A stretch of 64,000 nucleotides of DNA, taken from positions 1 through 64,000 of the IMG/VR virus record IMGVR_UViG_3300030390_001877; one strand, 5' to 3'. A program made the position numbers and the translations under genes. Under the pieces are notes generated by a model, which saw only the letters and a list, made by a program, of their open reading frames with translations, was not told the origin of the DNA and did no database searches. Source of the stretch: a virus. Positions 3,878 through 63,317 of the stretch are shown here, piece by piece. The first letter of the stretch is position 1, and each line of letters begins with the position of its first letter.

Positions 3878-5224
3878 TCATTCTGCATATAACCACTCCT
3901 CTAATAATCTTTGCATCCTACTACTGAATATCAACACTTCCATACGTTGACCTTGCCTAATACATCCCCTAAAGATAAGCTGCAGGAGTTCAGAAATCGA
4001 GTACAAATCTGAGTTGAATATAACACCCCTCTCCTTCAAGTAATTAATCTCCACAGGACGTTTATAAACATTGACAGCATATAAACACAACGTATGATCT
4101 CTGTACTCATTAACAGCTTTCTTATTCCAAGGGATGTATGGTTCTAAACCATTTCTCGGGGTTTGTTTATACCCTTTCCCAGCTAATCTTCCTTTATAAG
4201 GCTTAAACGTTGTCCAAAACACTCTGTTACTTTTTGTATTGGTTCTATTGATAGTAGATTCCATAATACGTCTAATCGTCTTAGTGTATTCACTATCCTC
4301 ATCCTTGCTTCCATCACGAGTGACATTTCTCTCATACCAACCAGCAGAGAACATTGTTTCAATACTCTTATTACTTCCTTTCTTACGACAACTTTCCCTG
4401 AACGTATTCAAAGCTGTAGACTTTAATATAACCAGATTATTACGTATCTCTTCTTTGATATCTTCTTCTGGTCTGAGTCCTAAAACATTATGAGGGAGGT
4501 ATTTATAAAGAATATTATTCTTCTTCATCCAAGATGACATAATACTTCCTTCAAACAAATAAGACATAACATAAACATCATCTAATTCTTTCAACAACAG
4601 AGGAGGGTATTCCCACACAAGGATATTATCTTTGTATTTATACAAACTTTCTGTCTCACATAGTTTCATGATAGCATAATAAGGGTTCTTTGTAGTCACT
4701 TCATTACCAGACCAAACAAGCTTACCATCCTCTTCAACAGTCATCCACCCTCCTACAGATAACAACTCAACACTGTCAACATCTAATTGGTCATACTGTG
4801 AAATACAATCAAGTGCTTCATCAATAATAAGTGTGTACCCTCCATCTGTCATAAGTTGAATACATTCTTTATCAAAAGCCTTGAAAGATTCATGAGTTGT
4901 TGATATATTCTTACCTGCTCGTATTAAATCTTTAATATTCTCCTTCTTACCCTGACCAAGACTCTTTGGCATACAAAACTTCATCTCTGGTAGTTCTTTA
5001 TGGATACGTCCTTCTACTGGAGCTTCCCTTCCACTCTTACCATCACCCACTTCACTAAGAAATAATGATACATACAAGAAACGTTTATCTGGAGTATCAA
5101 TATGACTCTTCCTCATATGATTAAACATACCTGTAGTCTTACCACTCCCCATAATAGCATCAACTATCTTGACAGGGGTTTGAATAGCGGACTGCTCCTT
5201 AATAGTCTGTTCTTCTGTGCTCAA
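3878..5224 (-). CDS. SF2 helicase-like / possible origin-binding ATPase
   Basis: Walker A DAIMGSGKTT, STTH, Walker B LIIDE, C-term QLIFRGCIR motif VI-like; TTG start with AAGGAGG. Confidence 0.75.
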   Translation of the reverse strand: MSTEEQTIKEQSAIQTPVKIVDAIMGSGKTTGMFNHMRKSHIDTPDKRFLYVSLFLSEVGDGKSGREAPVEGRIHKELPEMKFCMPKSLGQGKKENIKDLIRAGKNISTTHESFKAFDKECIQLMTDGGYTLIIDEALDCISQYDQLDVDSVELLSVGGWMTVEEDGKLVWSGNEVTTKNPYYAIMKLCETESLYKYKDNILVWEYPPLLLKELDDVYVMSYLFEGSIMSSWMKKNNILYKYLPHNVLGLRPEEDIKEEIRNNLVILKSTALNTFRESCRKKGSNKSIETMFSAGWYERNVTRDGSKDEDSEYTKTIRRIMESTINRTNTKSNRVFWTTFKPYKGRLAGKGYKQTPRNGLEPYIPWNKKAVNEYRDHTLCLYAVNVYKRPVEINYLKERGVIFNSDLYSISELLQLIFRGCIRQGQRMEVLIFSSRMQRLLEEWLYAE

Positions 5225-42324: not shown

Positions 42325-45165
42325 ATGCAAGCAGAGTTTTTAAAAGATAAGAGTAAATTTACAAATAGGTTGCTGCATAGTGACGTGGAAGCTAGAGGCT
42401 TTATAGATATAGTTAATAAACCTGAAGATGTGTGGTGTTTGGTTTCAAGAGATGATGAAACTGATGAGGTATTTATATTCCACGACTACCCTGAGTACGA
42501 TAACGCAGAAGTATTCGACCAAGGAGAGAAACATATTATTCCTCCTAGAACAGGAACTCTCTTAGACGGAGTTAGGTTTTGGTATCTAGCAGGTAAGAAT
42601 GGTAGTAAGCTATCTGTGCATAACTGCTTCACCTATGATAAACCTTTAATAGAAAAGATCTGGCCTAAGTGTATTATTGATGATGATGTTTGGGTAGATA
42701 CTTTTATACAAAGTAAGATTCAATATTTTGACAGACCACAACGGAAAGGAGCTAAATCTCCTCACGGTTTGTTGAATTACTCTTTGATGGAAGGTAATAA
42801 GAAACCTGAAGTAGAAGACTTTAGTATTATGAATGCTTTTATGCTACATCGTTGTATAGTAGATACTAAGACTCAGAAGTTTGCACATAACTATCTTAAA
42901 AAAGAAAGAGATATGCTTTTGAGTAAGCTTGGTATTGACATGCAAGATGCTTATAAGATGGAGGTAGAGTATACAAAAACATGTTACGAGCAAGAACAGT
43001 ACGGAGCTAAGGTAGATGTACCACATATTAAAAAATGTATTGAATATCTTGATAAAACTACCGCAGATCTAGCAAAAGATATAACACCTAAACTCCCTCC
43101 TACTATTAAGGTAAGTGGTGGCAAAGTATCTCGTGTTGAGATGGCAGGTTTGTTTGGTTATGATACATCTGGTATGAAAGATGAGATGGAAATGGTTAAG
43201 AAAGATGGTGAAATGGTTTCCCAACCAGTTAAACCTTATTATAAACCTACCACTAATTTCCATACTATTAAAAAAGTTAATCAATATTCAGGTTTTAATA
43301 TTTCCTACGGGTACAGCCCTAAGTTTACTAAAAAGAATGACCTGACTAAATGGATTAAATCTCAACACCCCAAAGGTGACACTGCAAAAGTAAAAGAGTT
43401 ATCAGACTTCGTAAAAGAATGGGAGATTGATAAAAACATTGAAGAAACTAAACTTTTAAATAAAAACACTTGTGATTATTTTGAAGTAGAACCAGAAGAT
43501 ATAGATGTTATTGCTGGTGCTCACACTAAAATTAAGTTTGTTGAAAGCTCTTTGACCCAACATGAAGTGGTAAAAGGTTATCTGATAAAAGAAGGTATAA
43601 AATTCGCAGAAGAATGGAATCTTAAGAAGGATGGTGAAGGTCAGATCATAAAAGCTGAATTTGATACTGAAGTTAGGTATCCACCTAAAGCCAGAAGAGA
43701 TCAACAAATGGTGTTGAAGATTAAAAAGGGTGATGCATTAGTAACTTCCCCTAAGTTCGGGGAAAAAGAATATGCTCAATTAGAATCAGAAGATGGTAAG
43801 AATGTAGGTATGTACAACACTTTGGTACACCGTAGGCGTTACCTTGAGAACTACAAAGACCCAGAAAATAAAGGCTTACTTTCTTACGTAAGAGAAGATG
43901 GTAGGGTTGGTGCTGGTGTTAATAACTTCAACACTGCAACTGGGCGCGCATCACACAGAAAAATTGTAAATTTGCCTGCTGATGGTGCTGTATTTGGTAA
44001 AGAAATGCGACAATGTATTGTTGCTGATGAAGGAAAAGAGTTAGTCGGTATTGACCAAAAATCTAGCCAACTTTCTATATGCGCTTTTGTAACTAACAAT
44101 ACAGATTATTATGAGGCGGTTGCGACAGGGGTAGAATTCGAAAATGATGAAAATGGAAATCCTATTTTCCATGGTTCTAGTGCTCATTGTGTGAATTCAA
44201 GATATTTTAATTTGGTAACCAAAGAAGAATGGGCAGATGCAGTAAGAACACAAAACCCAGATTTGATACATGATATTGTACTCAGACGTAAAAAATCCAA
44301 AGGATTAAGTTTCGCTTCGTTATTTGGTTGTGGTCCTGCTAAGTTAGCTTTAATGGGTGGTTTTGAAGTATCAGAAGCTAAAACAAAACTGCAAGCCTTC
44401 TTAGATAATATGGGTTTATCTGAGGTAATAAAATTTCTAGAAGTATGTAGGGAGAAATACAAAAGAGGTAAAGGTTTTTATATACCAACAGGGTTTGGGT
44501 ATTGGGTTTATTGCGGAGGTGTACATAAATCAACCAACTACCTGATCCAGTCGCTAGAAGGAGTGGTGCAAAAGAAAGCAGTTGAAATAATGAAACAGAG
44601 GTTTATAGAAAAAGGTTATTGGGGAAAAAGCGTTAATAAAATACTTGATATGCATAAATATTGTGCCTTCTAACCGTGAGGTTAGTCGAATAACTCCGTT
44701 AATTACTGGAAACCTTAACTAGATTTGTTAATATTATCGTGAGATAAATTTAACATGTTTGTAGAAGGTGATCAGAAGCCACACTGTTCTTACAGTAGGT
44801 TCAGAGACTATCGAAAGCGTATGTATCAATGGAAGATACTATATACAGCAAGTAGAGTAGGGTTCAAGCGAATTCGAAAATGGAGCATCTTAGTTAAGAT
44901 GATTATATAGTCCGACTCTGTTAGAAATAACAGGAGATTTAGCGAGTCTCATAAGTAGGTGGATGAAGTATTATTAGAAGTAGATAAAGGTATGGGTGTT
45001 GAGGTAGGCAAAATCGCTTGTGAAGCTTACACTCAAGCTGGAGTGGAATTAAATAAATGGTATAAAGAAAATTTACATTTATATCCTGCAGGCGGTACAC
45101 CTAAGATTACCTGTGATTTTGCAGGAGGTTATGCTGTTGGGGTAGACTACGCAAGTTGCCATTGA
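42325..45165 (+). CDS. family A DNA polymerase; join 42325-44655 and 44962-45165 (844 aa)
   Basis: ExoI DVE, motif A GIDQKSSQL, motif B K..SFASLFG; splicing restores motif C LDMH|DEVL. Confidence 0.92.
44656..44961 (+). ncRNA. group I intron (306 nt, no ORF) in polymerase motif C
   Basis: P1 GCAU/GUGC with U-G pair; P AAUUACUGGAAA, R GUUCAGAGACUA, S UAUAUAGUCC; terminal G. Confidence 0.92.
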
Positions 45166-59923: not shown

Positions 59924-62900
59924 TTATTTAGTTGTGGATAATCCAGAGGTAGCCCCTACATATCCTATCAGTTGTTTCATCTCGTCTGCGGAAGAGTTGT
60001 TGAAAATATAGGTGTTTCCCCCTTGTTGTTGATTACTTGTAGAAGGATTACCATCAGAGAACATATAGTTATAAGCTCCTTTCAGAGTAGGATATGCTGT
60101 CAAGTTTAATAATGAAGCTGAGTCTCTTTGTGATGAGAGGATATTCCCTAAGAAAGAGTTTTCATCTAAACCAAATAATTGACTTGTTTTACCTGCTCTA
60201 AGCTTTCCTTCTTTATCCTGAGTAAACCCTGATGTGGTCATTTCCCTGAGGTTAACCTGCATACCTGCACTTTCTTCTATATTACCCACAATCTTATCCG
60301 AGAAAAGAGATACTAATTCTTCTGCTGCTGCTAAGGCTAGTGTGATTGGAAGGAATGCTTTTGCTAAAGCTGCGTTAGTGGATAAAGCTACTATACCCAT
60401 AGTCTTACCAAAGGCTAGAAGTTTACTTATCGCTAAAGCTCCGAACAATAGTTCAAAGTTATCAATAGCAACTTTAATCACAGGTTCTATAAGCTTTAAA
60501 GAATAAGCAATCCCATTAAATACTGCTCCGAATATTTTACCCATCTTCTCAAGTTGTGGTCCTGAGGTTTTGAGTATTTGTGAAATTGTTTTGTAAAGAT
60601 TAGATAATCCTTCTGAGAAACCTGATTTGAAGATAGTATCTCCTGCACGCTGGGTTTCTGTGATCATCTGACCTTCTGTAACACGTAATCCTTGAAGAGC
60701 CTTATCGAAAGCGCCACCTTCTAGAGCTGCCTTTTTTAGTTCGGCGGCTACTTTAGGTAATACTTCTGAGGAAACAAGTTGACCCTGCTCCATCATCTTG
60801 AATAATTCTGCTTCTGAGACGTTTAGTGCTCTGCTGAACACCTGAACTGCACCTGGAAGGCTATCACCTAGCTGATTTTTGAGTTCCTCCAGTAAAGCTA
60901 ATAAAATCAATAACTTAGCTAAACACCTACACCTTCTCAGGGTAGCCTGATCATATCATAACCCTCGCCATTCTACGTTAGGGTTCCTGCCTTTTCTTCC
61001 TCTAAGAGGTTCTACTCTACTAACTTACCAAAGGTAGTCTACGCTACCTTATCCGCTTTCGATGATCGATGATCGTGAATCTACTTCTTACGTTTATTTA
61101 CTGTTATACTATATTGTTCCCATATGTGTTTCCAAGCATGTCCTGCACGTATCTTAGTGGCTTGCTGTCTACTGATTTCGTACTTTTCAACAGCTTCTTT
61201 AGGCATCATACCTTTCTCAAAATCTTTACAAACTTTGTGTACTAAATCTTCTGTTAAAACACTTCTACCATTCAAAGTACCTTTTAGTGCTGGTGTATTA
61301 CCGACTCTCCAAGACTCTTTAGTGTTGTGTTCGTGCGTACACCATTCCAGATTAGAGTAGTGGTTATTAGTCTTATCATGGTCAATATGATTAACACAAA
61401 CAACATAAGGGTAGTTTTCTGAACATAACTTTTTCAATTCTTCCGAAGGCTCTTCTAAAAAATACATTGCTACTAATCTGTGGACTTTTCTAGCAAATGT
61501 CTTACCATCTTTCTTAAATTGTACTTGGTAGTAACCCTGTTTATTTACAGGTACGTATTTCTTAGTTTTGGTTTTAATGTTCCTTATTAAACCTTCACAG
61601 TTTATTTCATACTTAGGAAATTCTTCTATAACTTTAAACATAAATATAACCCTTATTCTATTAAAAGGTTATTGTAGATCATTCGAGGCTGATTGTCAAT
61701 ATTTTCAGAATTTTTAGGGTTCGCTACTATGTCACCATGTAGTATCCTATCTGAAATCTAACTTGAGTTCCCAGCAGTTAAACAGGTTATTCGATAACAG
61801 TTTCCTGTTAAAGGGCCAAAGAACTTTTAGCCATTACCTTCCCTTTTGACATCCAATCTCTTCGAGTAAGTACGTTAACCCTTACTCCGCAAGTTCCTTA
61901 TTGCAGCTCTATATCACTATAGAAGTTGAGACTATATCTTCACCCTTACCGTTACGTATTAGGGGTTGTGCGCTTCCACTCACTTGAGTGTACAGGTTTC
62001 ATAATCCCAGAAGGATCGTTTACCTTAGTCGTTACACCTTGATAAGAATTACTTCCTACCCTTGGCTCGGTATTGTCTACTTGAGAGTTCCACCGAATTC
62101 ACACAATTTGTTCATGCTTATTACTAAGCAGCCAGACAATAATCGTCTATCTGGATCAAAGCTTTCTGACTTCGCTTCATGCTTTCGTCATCTACTTTCA
62201 ATGATGTACCAAACATACTCAATCCTGTGAATATATCTTCTTGCTGATCTTGAGAAATCTTACCTTTTGCAGCAAATTTGAACTTTACCCAAGCATCAGT
62301 TGTATCTTTTAAACTAAGTCCCATCTTATCAACAATACTATTGATAAAAAGCATATCTGTTGCTGCGGCATCAGCACTACCAGCAGCAGCTAGCATAGAT
62401 GCATCGATCCCTTGAAATGTCTGCCCAACACGTTTAATAGCAACAGTCCCTTCAAACAAAGCAAACAAACTTGCATAAGAACGGATCATATTACGAGTAG
62501 AGTCATTTAATCCTCCCTGAACAACATTCAATCCCATCATATTACGTTTTAAAGATTTAGTCTCTCTGTTAACAGATCTCATCTCAGAAGCTAGACGAGT
62601 CATTGCAGCAGTGTCACCTACTCTAACAGCATCTCCAAATCTTTTATCATAAGAAGACATATCCTTTCCAGAAGATTTCATGTTCTGATAATAAGCTGTA
62701 CTTTGGAAACGTGCTATCTTGTTTGCAAAAGCTTGTTGACGTTTAGTAGCAGCCTTGGCAAGCTTATCCTGCTGTGCGTAGAAGTCTTTCATCTTCTTGA
62801 GTTCTTCATCTTGGGCAGTCATCTTCTTGACGTGTTGCTTCATGAAAGCATTATTAACTTCTTCACTAGAAGATTTTATTTTAGCATTATTCCTAAGTTT

Positions 62901-63317
62901 TATTTTAAGAAGATCTTGCTCTCGTTTGTTTTCCTTTTTAAAACGTTCTTCTACATTAGCTTTTAAAGCAGCTTCCACCCTATTAAAGTCCGATACCTTA
63001 GCAGAAGCTACATCCCTCCCAGCTTGCTTACTTTGCTTGTAAACTTTTAACCTTTCTTGTAAAGATTTCCTGCCGTTAGAAATTTCCTTATCTCTCGCAG
63101 CTTTGTCTTCTTTAATACGTTTGTTGATGATGTACTTTTGGTAATTAGCCGTCCCTTTAAGATCTTTCCTTTTAGACCTCTCAATCTTACCAGACCTTTT
63201 TACAGCCCTCATCCCCATGGAATCCAGCATCTTATCGATTTCTTTAGCTTGTTTACCAACTCCTTTAGTATTCAAGTCTATATCAATAAAAAACTGTTCA
63301 ATCATATTATCTGCCAT
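59924..63317 (-). CDS. tape measure protein; join 63317-62149, 61853-61829, 60889-59924 (719 aa)
   Basis: splicing restores ALIQ-MMSKGKVMA-EELKNQLGDSLPG, the tape-measure N-terminal domain motif. Confidence 0.9.
60890..61828 (-). ncRNA. group I intron 2 of tape measure (939 nt, carries HNH ORF)
   Basis: P1 GGCU/GGCC, P10 GUUCUUU/GAGGAAC, P AACUGCUGGGAA, P7 GAUCA/UGAUC, terminal G. Confidence 0.88.
61081..61641 (-). CDS. intron-encoded HNH homing endonuclease (NUMOD4-HNH, I-HmuI-like)
   Basis: EEFPKYEIN.EG.IRN; VHRLVA..F; VNHIDHDKTNN..SNLEWCT..N. Confidence 0.9.
   Translation of the reverse strand: MFKVIEEFPKYEINCEGLIRNIKTKTKKYVPVNKQGYYQVQFKKDGKTFARKVHRLVAMYFLEEPSEELKKLCSENYPYVVCVNHIDHDKTNNHYSNLEWCTHEHNTKESWRVGNTPALKGTLNGRSVLTEDLVHKVCKDFEKGMMPKEAVEKYEISRQQATKIRAGHAWKHIWEQYSITVNKRKK
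61854..62148 (-). ncRNA. group I intron 1 of tape measure (295 nt, no ORF)
   Basis: P1 CCAGAU/GUCUGG, P GAAUUCGGUGGAA, Q AAUACCGAG, R GUGUAACGACUA, S AAGAUAUAGUCU, terminal G. Confidence 0.92.

Follow-up and report, generated by a model that had tools for sequence, protein, structure and literature searches.

How does a phage make a full-length tail protein from a gene that its DNA presents as two separate halves? The question is raised by the tail tape-measure protein (TMP) gene on the minus strand of IMG/VR virus record IMGVR_UViG_3300030390_001877, a complete 132,129-bp virus genome with direct terminal repeats, of which the first 64 kb (positions 1 to 64,000; hereafter, the window) were analyzed. 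This virus is an uncultured marine myophage from the group of Pseudoalteromonas phages H101/J2-1/HM1/PH357. Of the published phages, those closest to it are J2-1/SL20, HM1, H101, and PH357, all Pseudoalteromonas myophages (78–87% nucleotide identity across the TMP region). The answer, in which we have high confidence, is that the most conserved motif of the gene has been colonized by two unrelated mobile group I introns, and that splicing of the transcript would yield a TMP of 719 amino acids (aa). The model comprises the following elements, in window positions:

63317-62124, minus strand: outer open reading frame (ORF), 5' half of the gene, 397 aa
62149..63317, minus strand: TMP exon 1, 1169 nt, the last two bases of which open a Met codon
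62132..62154, minus strand: helix P1 of intron 1, from the Infernal alignment and the sequence
61854..62148, minus strand: intron 1 (site A), an ORF-less group I intron, IA-like (P7.1/P7.2 insert), 295 nt, with a terminal G
61829..61853, minus strand: micro-exon of 25 nt between intron 1 and intron 2
61812..61834, minus strand: helix P1 of intron 2, from the Infernal alignment of the J2-1 orthologue
60890..61828, minus strand: intron 2 (site B), putatively group I, IA-like, with an HNH gene in the P6 loop, 939 nt, with a terminal G
61081..61641, minus strand: predicted HNH homing-endonuclease gene, 186 aa, with its stop codon within the 3' strand of P6
59924..60889, minus strand: TMP exon 3, 966 nt including the stop codon
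60910-59924, minus strand: outer ORF, 3' half of the gene, 328 aa

The identity of the gene is indicated by ordered coverage of the Pfam family TMP_3 (PF20155), gap-free alignment to annotated TMPs, and a tail-gene neighborhood. The 397-aa ORF covers profile positions 5–99 and the 328-aa ORF positions 109–163, in that order, and the nine positions uncovered between the halves equal the nine codons completed by the micro-exon. Taken separately, the halves score 31 and 25.4 bits, each under the 41-bit cut-off. On the 3' side of the gene in the window are a Dit-like gene and then a baseplate-hub gene (Pfam), while in relatives the gene is preceded by those for tail sheath, tube, and chaperone. 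Joining the three exons (1169 + 25 + 966 nt) gives 2160 nt encoding 719 aa (about 79 kDa) with zero internal stops. The micro-exon finishes the Met codon begun in exon 1 and adds eight more, and the resulting nine residues, MMSKGKVMA, span both junctions in the predicted product (..ALIQ-MMSKGKVMA-EELKNQLG..; junction-spanning peptide, ..ALIQMMSKGKVMAEELK..). Omission of the 25-nt exon causes a frameshift, with a stop after seven codons. An earlier, sequence-only reading of this DNA had proposed introns of 295 and 939 nt around a 25-nt micro-exon, an in-frame 719-aa product, and a frameshift upon skipping. Its coordinates and lengths hold, and the three-exon, 719-aa gene model is very likely to be right.

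Natural alleles provide independent placement of the junctions. The end of exon 1 is set by the U-G pair of P1 and by intron-less alleles in PH357 and the IMG/VR contig L022. In PH357, which lacks intron 1, the equivalents of positions 62149 and 61853 are joined between positions 2819 and 2820 of its TMP locus (L004; blastn), and L022 provides a second allele without an intron at site A. The start of exon 3 follows from the G that ends intron 2, from the reading frame, from intact TMPs that align without a gap, and from the intron-free allele of the IMG/VR contig L012. As the micro-exon runs directly into the next exon in L012, which has no intron at site B, this allele gives DNA-level support for junction 61829/60889. 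The micro-exon thus directly abuts exon 1 in PH357, and the exon that follows it in L012, with synonymous changes and a single V-to-I replacement (PH357) as the only differences. Moreover, the uninterrupted TMPs of Pseudoalteromonas phage J2-1_QLiu, Alteromonas phage PT11-V22, and Rheinheimera phage Barba1A (L005–L007) align to the predicted product without gaps across both junctions. For both introns, then, intron-free alleles exist and removal restores the host gene exactly, at the very junctions (62149/61853 and 61829/60889) that the sequence-only reading had named. Together with an Rfam E value of 1e-15 for intron 1, these exact presence/absence alleles in relatives are far beyond chance.

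Intron 1 is matched by the Rfam model RF00028 at 70 bits (E = 1e-15, positions 62158–61907; gathering cut-off, 50 bits) over the full model (positions 1–253), and its orthologues score 50.8–66.4 bits. In P1, exon bases CCAGAU pair with the guide GUCUGG, with a wobble between U(62149) and G(62137) at the 5' splice site. The P7 pseudoknot covaries between orthologues (GACUA/UAGUC vs GACCA/UGGUC), and P9 is followed on its 3' side by two extra hairpins and then by the final G at 61854. A P10 helix of only about 4 bp can be formed, for which the partner is nt 1–4 of the micro-exon.

The case for intron 2 was built from its orthologues. J2-1, HM1, H101, and PH357 each carry an intron at site B that lacks the insertion found at 61670–61087 in the window. 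These ORF-less orthologues match the full RF00028 model (64.2 bits in J2-1, 64.2 in HM1, 54.5 in H101, and 54.3 in PH357) and are 84–90% identical to both ribozyme halves of the window's intron 2 (blastn), which aligns with them end to end once the insertion is removed. In P1 of intron 2, exon AUGGCU plus intron AAA pair with UUUGGCCCU, including a wobble between U(61829) and G(61817). The first 27 nt of the intron, P1 included, are identical to the J2-1 orthologue, in which Infernal draws a U-G pair at that position. A P7 (GAUCA/UGAUC) and a J8/7-like segment are present, P2 covaries (AACAG/CUGUU in the window vs AAUAA/UUAUU in the other phages), and a P10 of 7 bp, including two G-U pairs, can be drawn from the sequence between the first 7 nt of exon 3 and the guide GUUCUUU. 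Both introns combine a U-G wobble at the 5' splice site and a terminal G with a conserved P3–P9 core kept by covariation. Introns 1 and 2 have no mutual similarity beyond short core motifs, and are therefore two different introns. The sequence-only reading had likewise described two different group I introns with U-G P1 pairs at both 5' sites and a 7-bp P10 in intron 2, and the introns and P1 pairs are borne out here by the Rfam scores and Infernal alignments, in the case of the intron 2 pair via the identical J2-1 sequence.

Expression of the gene would start from one 3.4-kb precursor transcript covering the whole interrupted TMP gene. The internal guide of each ribozyme would base-pair with the 3' end of the preceding exon (P1, with its U-G wobble), an external guanosine would open each intron, and the exons would be joined after the intron's terminal G. 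Removal of both introns would fuse the three exons in one frame. An in-frame stop occurs a few codons past the 5' splice site in both introns (8 codons in for intron 1), and such an early stop would keep ribosomes off the ribozyme core.

The insertion at 61670–61087, identified relative to J2-1, contains the 186-aa gene that the sequence-only reading had placed within intron 2 as an HNH gene. Its product matches I-HmuI of Bacillus phage SPO1 (PDB 1U3E; E = 8e-8, residues 10–172 vs 12–163) with the His and Asn of the motif aligned, and the two share the arrangement of an HNH protein encoded in the loop of a phage group I intron. I-HmuI is a nicking endonuclease; the window protein, only about 30% identical to it, may either nick or cut both strands. 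Relatives of the 186-aa protein occur in 910 phage records, many of them labeled as HNH homing endonucleases, and its best match among 50,697 phage records is in Vibrio phage ICP1 1992_Ind_M4 (64% identity over 185 residues). In this phage, the protein presumably cuts or nicks intron-free alleles, so that repair would copy intron 2 into them.

Several points weigh against an interpretation based on two spliced group I introns. Rfam gave no match to the window's intron 2, even in permissive mode on positions 60700–62300, because a 584-nt HNH-bearing insertion (61670–61087) sits in P6, and the putative group I assignment of this intron is made through orthology. In support of the folds, RNAalifold yielded 89 pairs for intron 1 (four orthologues; 9 doubly compensated, 99.1% of cells paired) and 97 pairs for intron 2 (five phages; 22 doubly compensated, 98.4% of cells paired; P1, P2, P3, P4–P6, P7.1, P7.2, P8, and P9 recovered), although the RNAalifold structure itself rewards covariation and the counts come from only four to five related sequences. 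The 186-aa protein scored 24.5 bits against Pfam HNH_3, which is 0.3 under the cut-off of 24.8. Lastly, splicing in this phage is a prediction from folds, covariation, exact junctions, and intron presence/absence polymorphism, all of which were established computationally.

A different account of the locus is suggested by how it is annotated in relatives. By gene finders, and in the GenBank records of the four published relatives, the TMP gene is split into a 'tape measure protein' and a separate 'hypothetical protein', with an additional HNH gene in J2-1 and H101. As both TMP halves are open ORFs, the introns could be dead relics and the TMP could be made as two cooperating polypeptides of 397 and 328 aa. 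We consider this extremely improbable. The ribozyme cores have been maintained by compensatory changes, and a conserved 25-nt piece, invisible to ORF finders, encodes exactly the nine residues missing from the motif. In addition, the second 'ORF' begins at a TTG inside intron 2, and the homologous gene of phage ICP1 is experimentally spliced. The three-exon model corrects the annotation of an essential tail gene.

The ICP1 TMP transcript was shown by RNA-seq, reverse transcription-PCR, and Sanger sequencing to consist of four exons separated by three introns, in a study that also notes frequent interruption of TMP genes and the presence of HNH-3 genes in the first and third TMP introns of isolate M4 (Barth, Dunham and Seed 2023, PMC10448857). 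Most ICP1 isolates have the homing endonuclease gene (HEG) in the middle intron, unlike the first-intron HNH of 1992_Ind_M4. The ICP1 TMP is homologous to that of the window (tblastn E = 6e-20), the same conserved motif is invaded, and the first ICP1 intron is located exactly at site B, after the codons for ..VMA. The HNH gene of this intron in 1992_Ind_M4, the product of which is the 64% match described above, lies between the TMP halves, and blastn aligned 694 nt of intron plus ORF between the window and M4 at 67%. Mapping of the M4 sequence (L024 3330–5636) gave introns of 921, 372, and 990 nt, each with a terminal G, and exons of 8 and 16 nt between them; these exon lengths derive from our mapping and are not figures from PMC10448857. 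The spliced M4 ORF is open for 677 aa, and Rfam assigns 84.5 bits to the middle intron. Differences from the window are that ICP1 has nothing at site A, and that its other two introns are further downstream (one at site C, the other after ..QLG), where the window is intron-free. The two phage groups also have hosts of different genera, and the shared site B with a 64% identical HNH protein points to intron/HEG transfer between phages of Vibrio and Pseudoalteromonas hosts. Literature searches found no description of TMP introns in Pseudoalteromonas phages. As the published, spliced ICP1 TMP has one identical insertion site, the window case is not new in kind. It is a well-supported further example of an experimentally documented arrangement and involves no new mechanism; what site A adds to the ICP1 picture is another insertion site, along with the cross-genus link.

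The distribution of introns among related phages bears on whether the two in the window depend on each other. Exons of the relatives were mapped by the motif, P1 pairing, and terminal G, with sites A to E ordered along 64 nt of coding sequence:

Window: introns at A and B (HNH)
PH357: intron at B only
L022: intron at B (HNH) only
J2-1: introns at A, B, and E (HNH)
HM1 and L020: introns at A (own 176-aa HNH gene), B, and E-prime
L012 and L013: introns at A, C (249-aa ORF), and E-prime
H101: introns at A, B, C, D, and E (HNH), with micro-exons of 25, 8, 11, and 20 nt

In four relatives, the predicted spliced ORF stays open up to its stop codon, and in H101 it does so as far as the analyzed locus extends; an identical 29-aa motif is present in all five. 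Every site occupied in some phage is intron-free in another, which is the pattern expected of mobile introns. Each of the window's introns occurs alone in relatives, and hence neither needs the other; the two probably splice independently. Together, the window and its siblings form a natural allele series with one to five introns around one motif, a potential resource for work on tandem group I splicing, exon skipping, and homing.

Dependence between the introns could nonetheless take the form of splicing that is obligatorily ordered or coupled via the shared micro-exon, or of exon skipping that throttles TMP output, and there are precedents for the latter. The orf142 gene of Staphylococcus phage Twort contains three group I introns and a 23-nt exon that is skipped in a fraction of the transcripts (Landthaler and Shub 1999, as summarized in PMC10136302 and PMC3073962), and exon skipping also occurs in Coxiella and in engineered Tetrahymena tandems, where tandem introns skip a 24-nt exon in Escherichia coli (PMC10136302). 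Twort resembles the window in having tandem phage group I introns around a micro-exon (23 vs 25 nt), but differs in its host gene, in the high similarity of its introns 2 and 3, and in that skipping was shown. A skipped transcript in the window would encode a truncated product, and by analogy skipping is possible in principle. However, the single-large-ribozyme model put forward for Twort needs two highly similar introns, and those of the window share no similarity. The recognition elements are also at opposite ends of the micro-exon (nt 1–4 for P10 of intron 1; nt 20–25 for P1 of intron 2) and do not overlap. With no competition for bases, the sequence gives no hint of obligatory coupling, and the single-intron alleles (site B only in PH357 and L022; site A without B in L012) argue against it. 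Overall, we regard obligatory coupling, or skipping as a throttle, as quite unlikely.

Dependence could alternatively lie in mobility, if the HNH protein of intron 2 mobilized both introns together as a single co-converted unit. Just 25 nt separate the introns, a distance well inside typical co-conversion tracts of phage homing (T4, SPO1), and intron 1 has no ORF in the window. By analogy, co-conversion of both introns by one HNH protein is plausible. The alleles tell against a single mobile unit, given that L022 has the HNH-bearing intron at site B with site A empty, L012 has the site-A intron with site B empty, and the site-A intron of HM1 and L020 carries a different HNH gene of its own. 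Furthermore, the nearest relative of intron 1 in its own genome is a paralogue outside the window (76925–77119; 75.6% identity over 205 nt) in what we take to be terL (terminase), an essential gene. Joint mobilization by the intron 2 protein is thus rather doubtful in our view, and the distribution of introns 1 and 2 shows separate histories.

In HM1 (L002 2956–3486) and L020 (a 129.5-kb IMG/VR relative), the site-A intron encodes a 176-aa protein that ends in a classical HNH and zinc-finger motif and has no relationship to the I-HmuI-like protein of the window; intron 1 of the window is the ORF-less form of this intron. At site B, the Ala codon ends in A in the intron-free L012 (3427–3459), and in U, the base needed for the P1 U-G pair, in all intron-bearing copies examined (seven phages, including ICP1 M4). 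More generally, exon bases flanking the introns tend to follow intron type, as in the GAGGAACTC and GAAGAGCT variants, and these type-linked variants look like co-conversion tracts.

The most heavily interrupted TMP gene was found in H101 (L003, NC_029094; 2857–5346), with five group I introns in 64 nt of coding sequence (Rfam scores of 66.4, 54.5, 80.3, 39.0, and 30.3 bits); GenBank annotates this TMP only as fragments. The P1 proposed by Rfam for the fourth intron was rejected, as it drew on the 3' tail of the third intron, and a manual reading of P1 (AUCAGU/GCUGAU) restores the conserved peptide. Alternative junctions giving segments of 12, 15, or 16 residues rather than 13 were likewise rejected, since they produced alignment gaps or an intron without a terminal G. 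In the 8-nt exon of H101, the same bases are needed for P10 of the upstream intron and P1 of the downstream intron.

A broader proposal is that, across marine myophages, many different group I introns share the stretch of about 64 nt encoding the TMP core motif as a landing pad, with ordered splicing of the tandems and, in the window, coupling or skipping that tunes yield. We counted at least seven insertion sites in the motif, with up to five introns per gene (H101) and exons down to 8 and 11 nt. In very short exons, where the same few bases would act as P10 partner and then as P1 strand, splicing would be ordered by necessity. If the proposal were true, tail-protein output would hang on a chain of RNA folding events, and the window's 25-nt exon could impose milder kinetic coupling or some skipping, tuning TMP yield. 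Taken as a whole, we judge this proposal unlikely.

Repeated intron insertion into TMP genes has also been described outside these phages. Group I introns of the IA1/IA2 types occupy three TMP-gene sites (TMP-IVS1/2/3) in prophages of the Bacillus cereus group, and are similar to those discussed here in being IA-type, in occupying several sites per gene with or without HEGs, in their patchy distribution, and in having inserted into conserved sequence (Tourasse and Kolsto 2008, PMC2504315). They differ in that the prophages are siphovirus-type with Gram-positive hosts and TMPs of more than 1200 aa, and a micro-exon arrangement is not described in the text consulted (PMC2504315). Micro-exons down to 3 nt are known from a cox1 gene of fungal mitochondria that contains many group I introns (PMC2987802).

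In the more distant IMG/VR phages L014 (around 3920–5030) and L015 (around 5000), the TMP is broken in the same motif, after ..EELKRQ and before ..QLGDRLP; a search of L014 with Rfam found no group I match at E < 0.01. Further group I introns were identified elsewhere in the source genome, within and beyond the window:

44646-44934, plus strand: group I intron in the window, RF00028 53.7 bits in a genome-level search, unlisted in the window-wide gathering scan
76922-77166, minus strand: group I intron outside the window, the paralogue of intron 1, 90.5 bits
77501-77768, minus strand: group I intron outside the window, 40.1 bits

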